NCBI GenBank assembly: GCA_963823665.1
Contig: CAWGMQ010000003.1
Location: 1,248,001 to 1,312,000 of the forward strand
Direction: 5' to 3'
Length of the DNA: 64,000 nucleotides
DNA from: an uncultured Planctomycetota bacterium
Lineage (GTDB): Bacteria > Planctomycetota > Planctomycetia > Isosphaerales > Isosphaeraceae
Position numbers and translations under genes: made by a program. Shown here one piece after another: positions 11,619 through 20,885 of this stretch. How positions within the stretch are numbered: the stretch's first letter is position 1; each line of letters opens with the position of its first letter. The notes beneath the pieces are model-generated. The model saw nothing but the letters and a program-made list of their open reading frames with translations. It was not told where the DNA came from and searched no databases.

Positions 11619-13192
11619 CTATCTGGCGACGGCTCGGGCTGCGCGGACGGCGTCGCGCGCCTGGAGGAGCCCGGCGCCGAAGGTGTAGTCGCGCCCCTTC
11701 CGGCCGATGTCGCGGCAGGTCTTTTCCATGATCGCCTTGACTTCCCAGGGGCACAGGTCCGGGTTGGCGGAGAGCATCAGCGCGGCGACCCCGGCGGTCT
11801 GCGCGCCAGTGAAGGAGTTGCCGCCCCGGACGTCGACCAGCGCCATCTGGTCGTTCTCCTTCGAGAAGATCGCGCCATTCTCCGGCCGCGCCCAGCGCGG
11901 GAATCCGCCGAACACGCCCGTCACGTCGGGCTTGGCGAGGGGCCGCGACGGCGGGTAGTCTTCGTAGAACTTCACCCCATCCCAGGTGCAGGGGCCTTCG
12001 CTGCTCTCGTCGGCCTTCCTCCCGTCGCGCGTGATGCCGGCCGCGGTGATCACGCAGGGAACGTCCTTGGGCAGGGCGATCTCCTTCCCCCGTCGTAGAC
12101 GAGAGTAATTCCCCGCCCCACCGACGGCGACGATGCCCGCCGCCGACAGGTGCTCGAGCGCCGTCCGATAGAGGCCCCGGTAATTGCCGAGCGGCATGTC
12201 CTCCCACATATAGCTCAACGAGAGCACGTCCGCACCGTGGGCCGGGGCGTACTCGTACGCCTTCAGATAGCCCATGCCGCGCAGGACCATCAGCCGCGCC
12301 GGGGGGCGACGCCGGTGAGCAGATTCAGTGTGTTGATCGGACGGCCGGCGATGATCCCGGCGCACATGCTGCCGTGCGGCCACTTGAGGTCATCCCCGAT
12401 GTTCCAGTACGAGTCGCCCGCGAAGTCGTAGCCGAAGACGTCATCGACATAGCCATCGCCGTCGTCGTCCTTGCCGTTGAAGACCTCGAGGGGATTCCTC
12501 CACAGGGCACGGGTCAGGGCCGGCGTCAGCATGATCCCGGTGTCGTTGAGGGCCACCACGACCCCGCGGCCGGTGACCTTCTCCTCCTTCCACGCGGCGT
12601 CGACCTGGATGGTCGACAGGTTCCAGGAGAGGGTGAAGCCCTGGGTGGTGAACGGCTCGTCGCTGTCGTCCTCCCACTGGGCGATCGTTTGCCGGAAGAA
12701 TCTCTCCTTCTCGGGCGTTGCGGCCGGCTGATCGGGGTCCCGGTGCTGTTTCACCTGGCGGAGCGGGCGGCGCTGGAGATAGACGAAGGCGACCTCCTCG
12801 AGCGCGGCCAGGCGCTGGCAGGCGTCGCCCGTCGCGTCGCAGGTGAAGCCGTTGACGATCCAGTAGCGATCGAGGTCCCGGACCTTCTGTGACTTCTCCA
12901 GCTCGGCGACCCGGGTCGCGACCTGGCCCCACGAGCGGTCGGCCTTGGCTCGGAGCGTCTGGACGATCGCCGGCCGGAGCTCGCGCCGCTTCGCCCCGGC
13001 GTGCTCCGCGCAGAATCGTTCGTAAGCGCCGCGTTCGCCGAGCAACTGGTCGGCCATCCGGACGAACACGGCGTAAGTCTTCCGCCCGGTGCTGCCGATG
13101 TCGCGGTCGATCTTGCCCGCGACGTCGGCGGCGTTCGCCGCCGGGACCAGGCCGAAGAGGAGGGCCACGAAACAGCCCCGTGCCGCCGCCAT
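11619..13192 (-). CDS. S8 subtilisin-like serine peptidase, frameshift near 12300
   Basis: Triad motifs VALNDTG, PHGSMCAGIIAG and GNSFTGAQTAGVAALMLS; NGKDDDGDGYVDD loop; signal peptide and prodomain. Confidence 0.88.
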
Positions 13193-13460
13193 CGATGGAG
13201 GCCGGTAGACTGAGTCGGTATGATATTCCGATGGGCGAATCAACCGGGTCCGTGCCAGGAGTGCGATCATTCCAGGTCCCTCCTGAAGCTCGACTGGGTT
13301 CATTGATGTTAACCCAACGGCGGATGCCCGACAACGCACGAACGGCCGTCACTTCTGATCGTAGTCACAGCCTCGATTCAGGTGGCGACACTGAGCATCT
13401 ACACCCGATTGAGGGCAAGGGGATTCCGCCGGGTCGCCTTGGGGGATCGCTCCCCCAAGG

Positions 13461-15880
13461 GCCGGGTAAGGAGGTGACGTTACCGCCACCCCCTCCCCTC
13501 AGAACTGCACGTGAAAGTTTCCCTTCATGCAGCTCAAGCCTTCACGAACGCCCCTCGCAGGACGCGGCCGCTTTCGTCAGTCGTTCTTGGACATGGATCT
13601 GCCGATGACAGTTGGCATGCAACAACTCCAGGTTGTCGGCTGTGCCAGAACCGCCCCGGCTGCGCCAGATGCGATGGTGGAGATGCAAGTCTTCCTCTGC
13701 GATCCGCAGCGGTTGACCACAGACCACGCATCGTCCCTCTTGTTCCTTCCATAAGTATTCGATCCGACCCCGACCTGCCAGCGTTTGGCTCAGTTGCCAA
13801 CCCAGTCGTGCTTCCAGGTACAGTTCCCACTTCGGATCGTAGGGATTCACGTCGCTCCGGATCTTCACATAACGAATGATCTTCACTTTGGCTGCTTCCA
13901 TCAACTGGATCGGCCGGCCTTGGCCTTTCTGGTCAAACAGCGTACCGGTGAAGACCCAGTGGCGGTAACCGTCTTGCTGGAAGTATTTCTCCTTGATCCA
14001 CCTCCGGCCTTTGTTCTGGTGCCGTCGTCGACACCAACGCCACAATTTCTGGAAAATCCGGTGATCCACGTACGTAAAAGTGCGCTTGCTCGCCGCGTAA
14101 CGGTGGTACATGGTCCAGCCCTTGATCTGCTGATTCAAACGCCAGATCATCTCTCCTGCCGTTAGGCTGCCCGAGCCGTCGATCGTTTCCTGTATCTTGT
14201 TCAAGAACGTCTTCACGTTTCGCAAGGACGGCTTGGTGAACACCTTGCCGCAGCGATAGCGTCGCACATTCTGCCCCAAGAAATCGAAGCCATCCTCCAC
14301 ATGCGTGATCTGGGTTTTCTCGTGGGAAAGTTCCAAGCCGCGTTCCTTCAAGAAATGAGCCACGAGAGGTTGCACTTGGTCACGGAGGAGTTCCTTTGAG
14401 ATGCCCGTGATCAAGAAGTCATCCGCATAGCGGACCAGGTGGACTTTAAACTTCCGTTGTCGCCCGTGCTTCTCGGCGAACTGTTCCGCCAACAGCCGTT
14501 GCAGTCCATCCAGAGTCCAATTCGCCAGGACGGGTGAAATGATCCCGCCTTGAGGTGTTCCTTCCGTGGTGGCGAACCAGGCGTGCTTCTCCAGGAAACC
14601 CACTTTCAGCCATTGCCCGAGCAACTGCCGGTCCATGGGGACGTGCGTCAAGAGCCAGTCATGACTGATGCGATCAAAGCAAGCTTTGATGTCCCCTTCG
14701 AGAATCCATGCTGGACCGCTCCGATTACCCAAGACAATATGAGATTGTTCCAGGGCGTCGGCACAACGACGTTCCAGCCGAAAGCCATAGGAATGGCCGT
14801 CGGCTCGAGATTCCGCAATGGGATCGAGGCCTAGCAAGTATAATGCCTGCATGGCTCGATCTGACATGGTGGGAATTCCGAGAGGACGTCGCTTGCCGTT
14901 GCTTTTGGGAATGTACACCCGGCGGAGCGGTTGCGGTTGGTAACCGTGCCGACGCAGAGTGCTGAAAGCAGCCGACTTGGCTTCCGGTGTGTTCCAGAGA
15001 ACTCCGTCCACACCGGGAGTCTTCGCACCCGAATTACTGATGACTCGCAAAATGGCCAGGGCCCGGCCACTGAACGAGTGCGTGAGCAGATAAACCAGAG
15101 CCTTGACCTTATTCCATCTGCCCTCCGCAACAGCCTTCACGATACGCGCCTGGAGCCGACGGACTGTGCGCCAGACTTTCTTCCATTCGATGGAGTGCCA
15201 GTCGGGCGTAAGCTCGGGAGCCGCACCAGCAAGCATTTCTGCCGCCGACATATCTGCTTGTCTCCCTGAGTCGGTTGGCCAAGGTTCTCTCGTGACGGAA
15301 CACCTGAGGGAAGTCGGCACCGCTTTCGCGGTGAGGGGATGTCGTCCGTGGGAGGACTCACCCTCTATCCGATCGACTACCGAACGGCATTGGCTTGCTC
15401 CCTCATCCTCCACCCGCCGCCCCATCGGCGACGCCTTACGACGGTCCTACCCCGAAGGGAGGGCGACGGGCTTACCACGTTCCACGGATGAATCACGGAT
15501 GGTTTAGGCTCTGCCTCTCCGCCGGTGGCTCGGATGACGACGACAGGGGATGGGAAATCCCACTGTACCTGGCCACGTACCTTTTTGGTTCAAGCCTCTC
15601 AGCGCCTTTGGCTTGTTGGATCTCACGACGTTTATCGGCAGTTCACCTGGATTAGCCATGCCATCCACCCCTGGCCCCCGACCGCATTGGCGTTCGCAGT
15701 CGCCGGATTCCCTCACGGGATATCCAACCACCCGAAGGTGAGGTTACGTTGTCCCAAGAGCTTCGCACGGTCGGATTGCTCCGGCCGCACGTCCTGGTAG
15801 GGTTCCGGTGGTCGTACATCGGGTTATGTCCTGGTTGCAAATCCAGTCATAACAGACTCATCCGCAGCTTCGTTTCGCGA
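13461..15880 (-). mobile_element. Group II intron, inner (CL/IIB-like, RT-maturase-HNH), nested in DVI of the outer intron
   Basis: 5' end TCGCGAAACGAAG at 15880. DV GAGCTGCATGAAGGGAAACTTTCACGTGCAGTTC at 13502-13535. DVI ends CTTACCCGGC at 13461. EBS1 TTCCCA (15551-15556) and EBS2 AGATCC (15618-15623) match the flanking host sequence. Confidence 0.92.
13542..15251 (-). CDS. ltrA: Group II intron-encoded reverse transcriptase/maturase/HNH endonuclease (intact, about 569 aa)
   Basis: RT N-terminal [45 protein letters not shown], domain X, and C-terminal CxxC...HH...NL..LH.NCH HNH. Confidence 0.96.
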
Positions 15881-15927
15881 CTCCCACAGATCCGGGCTTG
15901 CCCAATTAAGGCACCCGGCTCGTCATG

Positions 15928-17278
15928 TCACTTGTTCGCTACGAGACGGCATACTGAGTGGATCGCAATCGCTGCCGGAAGCGGTTTATGCTTCAGGAAC
16001 CGAGCGAACCGTTCCCATGTCATCCGACGGCCGCGCCGCGGCGCGACAGCCAGTGCTGCCAGAGCCAGGTGGCACCACTGCGAAACCGTGACAACATTTT
16101 GGAGTTGCCGGTGATTCCGTAGTAGGCATAGTGGCCTAGCAGTTTCTGACCTAGTATCCGGTGCTGCACCTTGAGCGGTTGATGGCGATTTTGCGACACC
16201 AATCCGCCAACGTTCGCAGGCTGCGGCGAAATCGACTTTTGGACGTCTTGCGCTTCACCACCCAGCGACCCTGCCGGGAGCGACCCCAGTAATGGGTGAA
16301 CGCCAGCAGGTCGAAAGTCCCTGGTGGAGTTCGTGTGGGTCTGCCTTCCGGTTTGGGACGGTCCGATGGCCGCTCGAACGGCACCAGCCGCGTCTTGTCC
16401 GGGTGGATGGTCAAGCCGTACTTCTCAAAGCGTTTGGGCAACACATTCATCACACGCCGTGCGTCGGACTCGCATGAGAAGACCATGACGAAGTCGTCCG
16501 CATAGCGGATCAAGAACGATCTGCCCATCATCCGAGGCTGAACCTCCCGCTCGAACCACTCGTCCAGCACGTAGTGCAGGAAGATATTCGAAAGGATCGG
16601 GCTGATCACACCCCCTTGTGGCGACCCCATTTCGGGGTGCGTAACGCACCCGTTCTCGAAGACGCCCGCATTGAGCCATTTGCCGATGAGCCGGAGCAGC
16701 ACTCCGTCTCGCACCCGACGCTTGAGGAAGTCGCGTAGATGGCCGTGGTCAATCGTGTCAAAGAACTTACGAATGTCCACATCCACTACCCATCCGCCCT
16801 TCATGTTCATCGTCTGTTGCCACAGGCTCTCTGACGCAGTGTGTGCCGATCGCTCGGGCCGGAAGCCATGCGAGCAGTTCTTGAAGTCCTGCTCGTATAT
16901 CGCCTCCAGAACCATCACGACAGCACGCTGGAGCACTTTATCCTCGAAGGTCGGGATTCCCAGTGGCCGGGTTTCGGTCGCTGAGCCTGCCTTGGGGATA
17001 TGCACTCGCCGCACAGGCGGTGCGTGGTACGTACCGGACTTGGCTCGTTCCAGCAGCGACCGTAGGTTCGGGACCAGGTTCGCTGCGTAGGCCTCGCCAT
17101 CTTGTCCGTCTACGCCCACCGCCCCGTCTTGGCGGGTCCGGTAGTAAGCTGTGAGCAGCCAATCGAGGTCGATGAAGTGCCCCAGGGATGTGAATCCCAT
17201 CTCCGGGCTTCGCCGAGCGAGTTCCGCTATCCGTTGTTGTTTCGTGGACACGTCCACGGGTTCCGATGCACCCGCCAT
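15928..17278 (-). CDS. ltrA: Group II intron reverse transcriptase/maturase without endonuclease domain; two frameshifts (~16190, ~16040)
   Basis: AVGVDG, RPLGIP, PQGGVISP, RYADD, FDLLAFTHYW. Continues in shifted frames as GHYAYYGITGN...MTWERF...LP to a stop just before DV. Confidence 0.93.
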
Positions 17279-17857
17279 GTTTCCCTCCAACGGTTGTGTG
17301 ACATGGCGTCTCCTTCCCTCCACCGGGTCCCTCGGAGTGGTTCCCCGGCTTCAACGGTACTACGAGACGCTCCGACTCCCATCCGCCCCTTTCGCCGCAC
17401 TTCGTTGCCTTCGTGTGGCGATACCACCCTTGCGTCCTGTTCGCTCCCAGCGACCCGACGCGGGGTCGTGGGCCGGGGAGTTGGTATTCCGGATCCCGAG
17501 CCGGAAATGTCAGTGGAGACGGATGGGGCTCTCAGGTTCCCGAGCAACCCTCGCGTCCCTGCGCCATGTTCTTGGACCCCGGCAGGACCGAACACGCCAG
17601 GCCATTGCGGCGTGTCGACACGGCCCCCGCTTGTGTCTACAACGGAGGCTCCCACGATGAGTATTTCGGGGCTCGATAGCATGGCATGGAGACTCGCTGT
17701 CTACGCTTCGCAGTGAGGGTCACCCCTCCCCACGCAAGACTTGCTTCCGGCTGCCGGCCAGGCTCTGCCGGGCGGGATTCGTTAACCCGCAGGGTCGCGA
17801 TGAAAGGTTTCTGTGTTTCGAGGCACTTCCTCCTTTCTCGAGCTTTTCCTGACGCAA

Positions 17858-17877
17858 AGACACCCATCGTTTTGTCG
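17858..17877 (-). repeat. GGGTGTCT motif copy (GACAAAACGATGGGTGTCT), forming the 5' exon of the outer intron
   Basis: Near-identical to 20849-20868 (GACAAAAAGGGTGGGTGTCT). Joined to the 3' exon it reads GGGTGTCT|GGAATCCC. Confidence 0.75.
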
Positions 17878-17883
17878 AGGGCG

Positions 17884-18168
17884 TTGACTTCCTATCCACG
17901 GCGAATGATTTTTGACAGCTTGGAGATCCATCTCAGCCACCGGCCGACCCACCGATCCCGCCGAATCAAGGAAATGCGGCCGAACCCCGTTGCCGGGTGG
18001 GAACTGCGGCTCGGTGACTATCGGGTCCTCTATGATGTGGATGATCAGAGGCGCGTCGTCCAAGTCCAGGTCATCGGTGAGAAAGTCGGCAACCGACTCA
18101 TCGTGCAAGGCGAGGAGTATTCCGCCCATGAAAGTGATCGACCTGAACGAGGCGAAGGCGAATCTTGA
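17884..18168 (+). pseudogene. RelE/ParE-family toxin, probably 5'-truncated
   Basis: WELRLGDYRVLYDVD..VVQVQVIGEK RelE signature. The N-terminus is short and abuts the GGGTGTCT motif. Confidence 0.75.
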
Positions 18169-18319
18169 GGGTTATGCCGAAGAGTGCCAACAATCGCCGG
18201 TGATTGTCACGATTGGAGGGATCCCGAAATTCGAGCTCGTCCCGATCCACACGGACGATCCCGAGTTCATCGACCGCCTGCTCGAAGAGAACGAGACGAG
18301 GGCCGCTCGAAAGATCTGA
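18128..18319 (+). CDS. Phd/YefM-family antitoxin, probably 3'-truncated
   Basis: MKVIDLNEAKANLEGYAEEC..PVIVT..G.PKFELVP Phd-like N-terminus; overlaps the toxin gene. Confidence 0.72.
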   Translation: MKVIDLNEAKANLEGYAEECQQSPVIVTIGGIPKFELVPIHTDDPEFIDRLLEENETRAARKI

Positions 18320-18334
18320 GGCTTTCCCCGTATG

Positions 18335-18469
18335 CTACCAGTTTGAACCCGTGTCTTCGTCGAGGCTGACCCGACTCTTGCCGACGCGCACGGCGCCCGG
18401 CTCGTCTACTCGGAGCGGAGGCGGGTCGGCATGGATGGGAAGCAACTCGTTCAGTTCACTCTCGTTCAT
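18335..18469 (-). pseudogene. DUF433-family antitoxin N-terminal fragment
   Basis: ADPPPLRVDEPGAVRVGKSRVSLD matches the DUF433 start. Similarity stops at ~18359, next to GTGTCT (18351-18356). Confidence 0.65.
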
Positions 18470-18844
18470 GACGCGACACTCCGCGGCATTCACCCGTTGG
18501 GGTCTATCGTGCGTCGCCACTTACACTGTATACCAAGGCGGCTGGCATCGGTAGTTCGGTTGGACGGCGAGCGAGGCTGTGAGCAGCCGGGCTCCGCGCC
18601 TGGGTTGGCGCAACGTCAAGATCGGTTCGTGACACCTTTGCTGGGAATTCGATTGGATTCGAGGCCGGCCAGTGATGTTTCCTTCGCCGGCGCGGCAAGT
18701 GACGAACTCGTCGCATCGGTCGGCGCGACGCACGCGGCCGAGCGGGGCCCAGATACCCGCTGTGTGCCGGTTGAAGTGGATGCCCTAAACTGCCCCGATG
18801 ACCGGGTGTTTGCCTTGCTCCGCGCCTTCCTTACTTGGATGAGT

Positions 18845-18903
18845 GGGTGTCTGCCTTCCATTCCCCCCAAAGGTGGGTGTCTGACATCCGGTGTCTGACA
18901 TCC
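18845..18903 (+). repeat. Cluster of GGGTGTCT motifs with a 14-bp perfect tandem duplication (GGTGTCTGACATCC x2)
   Basis: Motifs at 18845, 18875 and 18890; duplication units 18876-18889 and 18890-18903. Confidence 0.8.
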
Positions 18904-19372
18904 CCGGCCAACGAATTCGCCAACCTCTGGCAGCGCCGCATCTCCTTCCGTGTCGGGGCGCTGATCACCGGGGTGGTCGGCGTCGTGATCCAGACGTGGC
19001 GGCTGATGGAGGACTCTTCCGGCTACATCTTCAAGTGGCTCATCGCTTACTCGGCGCTGCTCGGCGCGATGGGCGGCGTCCTCATCGCGGACTACTTCCT
19101 GGTGTGCCGGACGCGGCTCGACCTGCAGGCGTGGGGCGGGTCGTGCTGGTACACGGGCAGCTTCCACGCCGCCGGCCTGCTAGCCCCCGCCGGCGAGGGT
19201 CATCCCCTGCGTGCCGGGGTCCCTGGCCACCGTCGGACTGGTAGAGGTGATGCCGTCCTTGACGGACCTGTACCACTCTGCCTGGTCTCTCGGTTTCGGG
19301 ACGTCCCTCCTGGTATACTCGGGCCTGACGCTCCGGCGCCCCGGCGGGGCCGCGTCGCCACGCGGCTCTTGA
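18901..19372 (+). pseudogene. NCS1 nucleobase:cation symporter (cytosine/allantoin permease), C-terminal fragment
   Basis: SPANEFANLW.RRISFRVGALITGVVG...WLIAYSALLGAMGGVLIADYFLV. Starts immediately after the motif and degenerates downstream. Confidence 0.78.
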
Positions 19373-19397
19373 CGACCTCAAAGGGGAGAGGGCAACG

Positions 19398-20135
19398 ATG
19401 GACACCGAATACGACCGGATCGCGGAGCAGTACCAGCGGGCGAGGCTCCAGCCGTGGCGGACGCACATCGAGCGCTACACGCTGCTCCGACTGGCCGGCG
19501 ACGTGGCGGGGAAGGCGGCGATCGACCTGGCCTGCGGGGAGGGGTACTACACCCGCGCACTCCGTCAGCAGGGCGCCGCGCGGATCGTCGGCGTGGACCT
19601 GTCGCGCGCGATGATTGGGTTGGCCGAGGCCGAGGAGGCGCAACGGCCGCTGGGCGTCGAGTACCGCGTGGGGGATGTCCGGTCGCTGGAGGTGCCCGGG
19701 GAGTTCGACCTGGCCTTCGCGGCGTACCTGCTCAACTACGCCCACTCGGCCGAGGAGCTGGAGCAAATGTGCCGGGCGGTGGCCCGCGCGCTGAGGCCCG
19801 GCGGGCGTTTCGTGACGGTCAACAGTAACCCCGCAGAGCCGATTGTCGCCTTCCCTGCGGCCCGCGCCTACGGCTTCTCGAGGCGCGTCGAGGGGGAGTT
19901 GGTGGAAGGTGCACCCGTCGTCTTGGAGTTCTTCCTGCCCGAAGGCTCCTTCGAGGTGACGAACTACTACCTCAGCGCGGGGACGATGGAAAAGGCGTTC
20001 CGCGCGGCGGGCCTGCGCCAGCTGCGCTGGCACGCGGCCGAGGTCTCGCCCGAGGGCCTGCGCGAGTTCGGCCAGGAATACTGGGCGGACTTCCTCGCCC
20101 ACCCGCCGGTGGCCTTCATCGTTTGCGTCAAGTAG
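19398..20135 (+). CDS. Class I SAM-dependent methyltransferase (ToxA-like)
   Basis: Motif I IDLACGEG, VGVDLS, FDL..AAYLLNYA, LRPGGRFV; RBS GGGGAG upstream. Confidence 0.9.
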   Translation: MDTEYDRIAEQYQRARLQPWRTHIERYTLLRLAGDVAGKAAIDLACGEGYYTRALRQQGAARIVGVDLSRAMIGLAEAEEAQRPLGVEYRVGDVRSLEVPGEFDLAFAAYLLNYAHSAEELEQMCRAVARALRPGGRFVTVNSNPAEPIVAFPAARAYGFSRRVEGELVEGAPVVLEFFLPEGSFEVTNYYLSAGTMEKAFRAAGLRQLRWHAAEVSPEGLREFGQEYWADFLAHPPVAFIVCVK

Positions 20136-20710
20136 GTCTCCGGCAGGGGATGCGTGGTGGCCGGCCTGGAAGGGCGGTCCCCGGTTGACGGCGCCGCCAG
20201 TCCGGGGCTCAGCCCGACCCAGTCCGCATCGCCAAGTCGCGTGTACTGCACCGCCTCAAAGAGCGATTCGGCGAGCTGATCCAGGAAGCACGACTCCTTT
20301 CCGCCCTCGTGCCGCTTTGGTGTGACAGACCGCGCATTCCTTCTTCAGGACCCGGCCTCGCTCTCATCGCGAGGATGGAACTTACTTATGTTCCTATGCT
20401 GTCGTCAACCGACGAGAACCTAGACTTGTGCGGCCCAGCGAGTCGCCTTTCTTTCCTCTTGCGCGCGTCGGTCCGACGACACCGACGCATTTTCTGGCTT
20501 GGGGAAAGTGGCGACTGGATTTGAGCTCGCGACGGCACGGCACCGATCCTGCCGGTCACGGCTTATCGCCATGTGACATAACCGGTGAGCATTTCACGAA
20601 AAACACCTGTTCTTCGTTAGCCCGATTCTGAAATGCTCCGTTCTGCGGAGATGGGGCAAAGAACCCCAAGCTCATCCGCTGCATTCGAAGCATTCCACGG
20701 ACACCCTCTT

Positions 20711-20739
20711 TCGAGCTTTTCCTGACGCAAAGACACCCA
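20711..20739 (-). repeat. 29-bp exact copy of the outer intron's 5' exon/intron junction (20-nt intron stub)
   Basis: tcgagcttttcctgacgcaaagacaccca is identical at 17838-17866 and 20711-20739. On the minus strand it is followed by another motif variant, GGGTGTCC (20699-20706). Confidence 0.85.
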
Positions 20740-20848
20740 CCTTCTGCGCAGCGTCGGACACGCGCCTTCTTTTTGTCGAAATGACGGGCGGCAGTGCCGT
20801 GGTTCTCCGCCGAACGTGTGGGCCGCGAATTCATGGATGCGGGGCCGT

Positions 20849-20885
20849 GACAAAAAGGGTGGGTGTCTGGATTCCCTGGATTCCC
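20849..20885 (+). repeat. Empty GGGTGTCT^GGATTCCC motif with a 9-bp tandem duplication (CTGGATTCC x2)
   Basis: gacaaaaagggtgggtgtctggattccctggattccc matches the reconstructed intron target site. Confidence 0.75.

Follow-up and report, generated by a model that had tools for sequence, protein, structure and literature searches.

An endonuclease-less group II intron at a fixed position in the terminal inverted repeat of a predicted HUH/Y1 transposase element of a planctomycete

The window analysed here is a whole stretch of 64,000 nt (G000:C3:1248001-1312000, contig CAWGMQ010000003.1) from the 16.5-Mb genome, called G000 below, of an uncultured Planctomycetota bacterium of the Isosphaeraceae. 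Its minus strand carries a group II intron, the outer intron, which is split by a second, inner group II intron; filled, empty and partly filled copies of the outer intron's insertion site lie within a few kilobases. The original prediction held that the outer intron lacks an endonuclease and has come to target a dispersed repeat, much as IIC-attC introns live in recombination sites, and that a nick or transient single-strandedness at that repeat could supply its primer. Our analysis indicates that the repeat is the terminal inverted repeat of an element encoding a predicted HUH/Y1 transposase. The features of the locus are as follows (RT, reverse transcriptase; ORF, open reading frame; EBS and IBS, exon- and intron-binding sites).

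13428-17857, minus strand: outer group II intron, whole, from 17857 (TTGCG) to 13428 (...GGCGACCCGGC), split by the inner intron at 15880-13461
15881-17857, minus strand: outer group II intron, class E by best matches, from its 5' end (TTGCG) to domain V; Rfam RF02005 match at 17567-17781 and sequence reading
17858-17876, minus strand: 5' exon GACAAAACGATGGGTGTCT, the inner portion of a solo terminal repeat, with IBS1 GTGTCT at 17863-17858 and the conserved TGG at 17866-17864
17633-17638, minus strand: EBS1 loop AGACAC in a hairpin loop, complementary to IBS1; relatives show covariation
17655-17661, minus strand: CTCATCG, a possible second pairing with exon positions -12 to -6 (CGATGGG), without covariation support
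15944-17290, minus strand: RT-maturase ORF without an endonuclease domain, frameshifted in the window copy; lower coordinate approximate
15888-15921, minus strand: domain V of the outer intron, by sequence reading
13461-15880, minus strand: inner group II intron (RT and HNH), between domains V and VI of the outer intron
13428-13460, minus strand: domain VI and 3' end of the outer intron
13420-13427, minus strand: 3' exon GGAATCCC, formed by the outermost 8 nt of the terminal repeat
18844-18904, plus strand: empty terminal repeat cluster with a 14-nt tandem duplication
20711-20730, minus strand: 20-nt 5' stub of the outer intron, in the left end of a miniature element
20731-20876, no strand assigned: miniature element of ~150 bp with outward-reading TGGGTGTCT at each end (left end 20739-20731; the right end is the empty site)
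20849-20876, plus strand: empty site, GACAAAAAGGGTGGGTGTCT followed by GGATTCCC, on the opposite strand to the intron
20869-20885, plus strand: GGATTCCC-T-GGATTCCC, a partial duplication in tandem at the miniature element's right end

Joining the exons of the outer intron, with the 3' exon reading GGAATCCCC at 13427-13419 on the minus strand, gives the junction found at the empty site at 20849-20876, and the AGACAC loop complementary to GTGTCT lies in the EBS1 hairpin loop at 17638-17633, both as the original prediction had described. The motif at the empty site is likewise present, but the site belongs to a ~150-bp element, of which it forms the right end and which has a 20-nt intron stub in its left end. 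The window's own intron copy occupies a solo end with no element body alongside. A genome search in which 40 of 67 candidates were scored recovered 20 near-identical copies, the window stub being the 21st: six carry the RT gene, 14 are ORF-less (732-733 nt, one of these with the inner intron) and one is the stub. All 21 map to one insertion position, after TGGGTGTC[TC]^, in varied flanks, and the boundaries are precise in the 20 complete copies. Every copy has TGG at -9 to -7 and 20 have GTGTCT, whereas in 1.54 Mb of flanking DNA only 21 of the 318 GTGTCT hexamers have TGG before them, so the introns are not simply at unrelated hexamers. Of the AAA-N-TGG context that had been proposed, the TGG thus stands, while the upstream AAA run occurs in 12 of the 21 5' exons and is no general rule. 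The predicted right half GGAWTCCC is not required: among the 20 copies having a 3' end, GGAWTCC follows in just two and the common pattern is NNNWYC (18 copies). In the ORF-less copies (e.g. G000:C11:551452) domains V and VI are unlike those of the RT-bearing copies despite 94-96% identity in domain I.

Many copies at one position could also arise if a single insertion had been multiplied by transposition or duplication of its host element rather than by repeated homing, and the copies do cluster, with 11 of the 21 in two contigs and mostly in one element family. However, introns that are 94-100% identical occupy ends of various types in various element families, and their 3' exons differ (GACATCC, GGAATCC, GGCATCC, GGTTTCC, GCCTTCC and GAAACCC), each with exact boundaries. 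This flank diversity largely refutes passive spread, to which we give very little credence.

Counts across the genome bear out the claim of a dispersed repeat. TGGGTGTCT occurs 334 times against 45 for the control, the longer TGGGTGTCT-NNNWYCC (TGGGTGTCTNNNWYCC) 124 times against 1, and GGGTGTCTGGAWTCC 27 times against 0. The longer motif reaches at least five copies in 9 of 121 genomes of the family and at most three in each of 400 other genomes of the phylum. The motif terminates several families of short elements, reading outward at each end, among them a 151-bp family with 37 near-full matches in the 2.06 Mb sampled around motifs and introns. Pattern scans of metagenomes gave 0 matches at first and later 11, mostly single and uninformative. 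In certain repeat families (G000:C3:130168, 131450, 198255 and 200632; L414; L445; L319), TGGGTGTCT is continued by TTGCGTCA or TAGCGTCA, which represent the initial 8 nt of the intron and resemble insertion footprints that became fixed.

In the predicted fold of a full 151-bp element the two ends pair (z -3.2), and its GACATCC end is a near-palindrome, as would be expected if targeting were guided by structure as in IIC-attC introns, with the intron recognising a folded single-stranded element and EBS1 merely setting the register. The window copy nevertheless sits in a solo end without an adjacent element body, copies occupy ends of the 1.8-kb element described below as well as those of several element families unrelated to one another, EBS1 pairs over 6-7 bp and covaries, and the RT finds its best matches in class E, not C. 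We therefore regard structure-guided targeting as quite improbable.

The owner of the motif emerged from clustering the ORFs that adjoin it: a 405-aa protein encoded in a ~1.8-kb element. The motif stands at both ends of six distinct elements in G000 and of one in a further genome, G035 (L317), at distances from the gene of ~220-290 bp on the upstream and 310-350 bp on the downstream side, and is on the expected side in 17 of 30 matched pieces; one intron copy (C7:958514) occupies the upstream repeat of a transposase element. The protein has an HUH motif (N71-H72-L-H74, NHLH) and a catalytic tyrosine motif (Y185...N189-P190, YVDLNP), with H72, H74, Y185 and N189 invariant in 21 homologous sequences. 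It matches a Pfam-positive Y1 core with a profile probability of 95.6% and NF047646 with an E value of 2.8e-8, which is under the NCBIfam cut-off, and many of its homologs are labelled RayT by a source. On these motifs and profiles we identify it as an HUH/Y1 transposase, RayT/TIRYT-like. It has no Pfam match, and PF01797 searches of G000 and ten relatives found no Y1 gene with TGGGTGTCT at both ends because the transposase scores below Pfam. The AlphaFold model of the protein is poor (pLDDT 49.5), and sequence searches of the PDB returned nothing significant (E 0.6 to a transposase).

Seven genomes of the family with a close homolog of the transposase (at least 60% identity over at least 270 aa) contain 5-124 motifs, whereas at least five motifs occur in only 2 of the other 114. 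Deleted derivatives of the transposase element are also present; together with this co-occurrence and the tandem duplications described below, they provide indirect indications that the enzyme may cleave or mobilise the repeat. The sequence evidence thus identifies the repeat as the terminal inverted repeat of a predicted HUH/Y1 transposase element, common to several miniature repeat families, and the likeness to an attC recombination site falls away. An integron/attC reading was tried and rejected: of 20 phage-integrase matches, two (L112, L115) have TGGGTGTCT/C within 1.5 kb, without a constant arrangement, unlike its fixed distances from the Y1 gene.

The intact RT of the outer intron is 449 aa long, scores above the TIGR04416 cut-off and contains RVT_1; a domain profile search of it detected no HNH or other endonuclease domain, in agreement with the original prediction. 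Three of the six RT-bearing copies have an intact RT, among them the copy at C7:958514 (2011 nt), and the window copy has a 1-nt deletion near 16190 that recurs in the copy at C11:557295. Class C affinity is not supported: in a best-match test, as distinct from a tree with all classes, the RT falls in class E through plasmid matches H9, H11 and H14 (52-53% identity), the places of which are typed class E in the portion of the PMC8919778 supplement available to us. Its named close relatives are mostly planctomycetes. The group II RNA features comprise the Rfam RF02005 match, domains V and VI read from the sequence, and EBS1-IBS1 pairing with covariation. In a quick RT tree of 52 rows, motif users fall into two groups (SH-aLRT 89 and 97) beneath an open node, a pattern compatible with one origin or with several. 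Public sequencing runs contained under half of the words searched, and among the contigs listed from four runs an exon-ligation joint was absent, a result that is uninformative on splicing.

Relatives of the intron extend the association. Among 129 loci a 5' boundary could be set in 100, the 29 others being dropped before counting; with three G000 representatives these form 46 groups at 90% domain I identity, several relatives being classed on the 5' exon alone. Twenty groups lie in the exact register of a GG[GT]G[AT]C core (13 on the bottom strand, 7 on the top; background 0.30%), two more fit by the 5' exon alone and two are near, while none of the 11 groups starting with GTGCG (mostly Halomonadaceae) is in register. 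Twelve relative loci have the strict published GGGGWSAS in register. Pairing of EBS1 with the exon scores 5.95 against 3.73±0.15 for shuffled exons, a value reached in 0 of 1000 shuffles (54 introns, kin among them not being independent), and EBS1 changes along with the repeat variant. Related introns thus appear to have tracked variants of the core in two registers that are 5 bp apart on opposite strands. A Y1 gene of genome G070 (L204) is flanked by inverted GAAATTGGTGTCAGTTCATTTTTC, the repeat in which the introns L138 and L151 (top strand) and L149 and L246 (bottom strand) lie.

Both strands are used within G000 as well. A sister ORF-less family, ~71% identical in domain I and with EBS1 TGTCTG, inserts 5 bp away in the other strand of that repeat, the copy at C11:703037 reading GGGATCTCAGACA^CCCATCC. 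The 5' exon is CAGACA in 7 of 12 sister copies examined, most of these being 3'-truncated. Six sister copies match over the first ~112 nt alone (C10:1134092, C3:793760, C10:1212078, C5:1516609, C3:915322 and C10:2125414); five of these, when read out, end directly after CCGGAAG[CT]GAG, a common truncation point. Another sister intron, at G000:C8:520311 (L070; EBS1 GGACGC), lies in CTAGCTGCGTCC^CC, the reverse of the GGGGACGCAGCTAG repeat that adjoins a Y1 gene in L215. An intron of another type (Rfam RF02003, GTGCG start) occurs in genome G036 (L331:2963 (-), G036:C29) at the identical TGGGTGTCT^ site with loop CAGACACC, and four relatives of the RF02003 type (L462, L209, L217 and L075), from a biased sample fetched for other reasons, lie 8-9 nt beyond the top register of GGGGACA, GGTGTCA or GGGGTCA. 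Related introns at L261, L264 and L266-L269 have EBS1 CTTTTT and insert after AAAAAG in a conserved coding-like context rather than the repeat.

The intron copies are biased in strand within regions. At C11:546-586 kb, 6 of 10 plus-strand sites are filled and 0 of 16 minus-strand sites (Fisher p 9e-4), and all copies share one strand in each of six multi-copy regions (joint 1.8e-4). Two flipped elements (C11:579626 and C6:1327361) are filled at the other end type, so that the regional strand is kept. At 4-fold sites within ±40 kb, the G-rich strand coincides with the sense strand of the intron in 9 of 10 regions (p 0.02), raw GC skew being too noisy to use. If the G-rich strand marks the leading strand, the intron enters the lagging-strand template, as do RmInt1 and RmInt2 (PMC5894124, PMC4615759; these and the other papers cited here are represented by the portions available to us). 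Endonuclease-less introns also have a known primer source (PMC4424553, PMC5894124). The strand bias would favour replication-fork priming over priming by a transposase nick. The 4-fold-site skew is strong (up to about 0.3), and its changes of sign suggest many inversions or assembly joins in the 2 Mb of G000 contigs sampled.

We infer splicing, mobility and priming from these patterns. The explanation that we prefer, with a probability of roughly two in three, is that an endonuclease-less group II intron, fixed 8 nt inside an HUH/Y1 terminal inverted repeat, likely retrohomes by EBS1-IBS1 pairing and is likely primed by the nascent lagging strand. The intron would find the repeat by RNA-DNA pairing, and the nascent strand would prime reverse transcription; copies with an intact RT would mobilise the 14 ORF-less ones in trans. 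Either the RT protein or a further RNA pairing may recognise the conserved TGG. A candidate EBS2 in the outer intron pairs over 7-8 nt, but the same segment occurs also in introns with other exons. Having two oppositely oriented ends, each element would always present one on the lagging-strand template, an argument already made for RmInt2 (PMC4615759, PMC5894124). The transposase would keep generating ends and so renew the supply of intergenic sites, about 20 of ~290 above-chance sites now being filled. An insertion would presumably cripple the end that it occupies.

Several observations weigh against this explanation. Of the 46 intron groups, 22 do not use the motif; the relaxed core was picked after the data had been seen, the relatives were selected by similarity and the groups were labelled by majority. 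The EBS2 segment shows a weak excess in relatives (3.74 against 3.39±0.11 shuffled). With ±20 kb the sense strand agrees with the G-rich strand in 8 of 10 regions (p 0.11), fewer than at ±40 kb; the region count leaves out one divergent relative, at C7:824368, which disagrees; and the sister family has no strand trend (6 of 13 agree). Replication direction is read from the 4-fold-site skew alone, the sign of which flips every 50-150 kb, and neighbouring copies and tandem-duplicated sites are not independent. Genome G043 (73% complete) has 30 motifs, yet a close homolog of the transposase was not found there. Finally, what the 151-bp element has in common with the transposase element is confined to ~20 bp of end, and its mobilisation by the 405-aa enzyme is therefore put forward here as likely at most.

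The outer edge of the repeat bears on a different source of primer. Conservation stops at +8 from the intron site, and in 40 of 43 tandem duplications (unit lengths 8-43 nt; search range +1 to +30) the outer junction falls at +5 to +9, in 18 of them at +8. These junctions fit a break ~8 nt beyond the insertion site, near where an intron endonuclease cuts. The HUH transposase might accordingly nick the bottom strand at the element end, at about +8; the resulting 3'-OH, directed into the element, would then serve the top-strand intron as primer in the manner of an endonuclease cut, while the displaced bottom strand would be a single-stranded target for the opposite-strand family. HUH chemistry suggests that nick-primed strand displacement would leave duplications whose outer end is constant while the inner start varies, and the enzyme retains its HUH and Y-x-x-x-NP motifs. 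There are precedents: Ll.LtrB has an endonuclease that cleaves the bottom strand 9 nt downstream, and retrotransposition is stimulated by an HUH relaxase, for which action through its nicks has been proposed (PMC4256276). However, the strand and position of such a nick are hypothetical, and slippage at a top-strand end would yield the same duplications. Cutting of a single-stranded lagging template on the bottom strand further predicts a C-rich sense strand where a mostly G-rich one is observed, the commoner bottom-strand register in relatives could not use such a primer, and a primer source is already known for endonuclease-less introns. We consider a borrowed nick unlikely. A broader version, in which the introns would be dedicated parasites of HUH ends with the transposase as their missing endonuclease, its ~+8 nick priming the top-strand introns and its displaced strand receiving the bottom-strand ones, is a speculation of slightly lower standing; if true, it would explain why several lineages (two class E registers and the RF02003 type at +0 and +8/+9) are packed into a single stretch of 20 bp.

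The closest known system to the one we favour is RmInt2 of Sinorhizobium meliloti GR4, a class D intron in both inverted repeats of ISRm17 (PMC4615759, PMC5894124); an endonuclease-less intron in both inverted repeats of an insertion sequence is thus already known. RmInt2 shares with the present intron the absence of an endonuclease, the residence of all copies in transposon inverted repeats, two oppositely oriented sites per element and a weak EBS2. Its bias for the lagging-strand template has a possible counterpart in the regional strand uniformity seen here, the relation of which to the fork depends on noisy skew. The present case differs in belonging by best matches to class E, in having as its target the end of an HUH/Y1 element or of one of the miniature relatives of that element, in the use of both strands of one repeat by sister families 5 bp apart, and in comprising many lineages whose EBS1 follows repeat variants and in which ORF-less satellites dominate. 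IIC-attC and IIC-terminator introns also lack an endonuclease and live in a repeated intergenic site, but they are of class C and targeted by structure (PMC4424553), whereas here a full 6-nt EBS1 covaries and solo ends are used. Relaxase-stimulated retrotransposition of Ll.LtrB likewise proposes an HUH nick as primer of a group II intron, although at off-target nicks and ectopic sites (PMC4256276); here the home is fixed 8 nt from the likely end of an HUH element and the priming is hypothetical.

With respect to the transposase, TIRtrons/TIRYT (PMC3733652) similarly have a Y1 gene between inverted repeats (GGGGWSAS) that also form dispersed families, a related core GG[GT]G[AT]C, and the HUH and Y---NP signature. 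They differ in that the core here, GGGTGTCT, reads outward from the gene (inward in L204), and GGTGTCTG departs from GGGGWSAS at two positions. The 405-aa enzyme was also compared, as a Y1 gene flanked by repeats, with TnpA-Y1 subclasses 2.1 and 2.3 (PMC6006769), and resembles subclass 2.3 in its length and in the insertion that interrupts its core. REP-like (repetitive extragenic palindrome-like) structures are absent from subclass 2.3 genes, the available part of PMC6006769 mentions no terminal repeats for them, and 'group II intron' occurs 0 times in that paper. Our literature search, from which subscription papers and theses fell outside scope, found no report of introns in RAYT/TIRYT repeats or in ends of miniature inverted-repeat transposable elements; supplements or figures of PMC3733652 and PMC6006769 may list this repeat variant.

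To bacterial group II introns these findings would add a lineage-wide habit of targeting the end repeats of HUH/Y1 elements, themselves of poorly understood activity, and they offer a natural series of EBS1 guides altered alongside their targets. They would also supply the terminal repeats and the probable cleavage position of a long transposase resembling subclass 2.3, for which PMC6006769, in the part available, gives no flanking signal. Whether an endonuclease-less intron can borrow another element's nick as primer becomes testable with one enzyme and one 30-bp site.

Several other features of the locus deserve mention. Just upstream of the outer intron, at 17912-18319, lies a gene pair consisting of a Phd/YefM-like antitoxin (weak Pfam match) and a preceding small gene without a Pfam match, which we take to be a probable RelE/ParE-type toxin. 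A class I methyltransferase gene is found at 19398-20135, and a subtilase-like protease gene at 11619-13192 is divided between two frames. The inner RT-HNH intron occurs in seven identical copies in the genome, each between domains V and VI of other group II introns, and its hosts belong to two different intron families.

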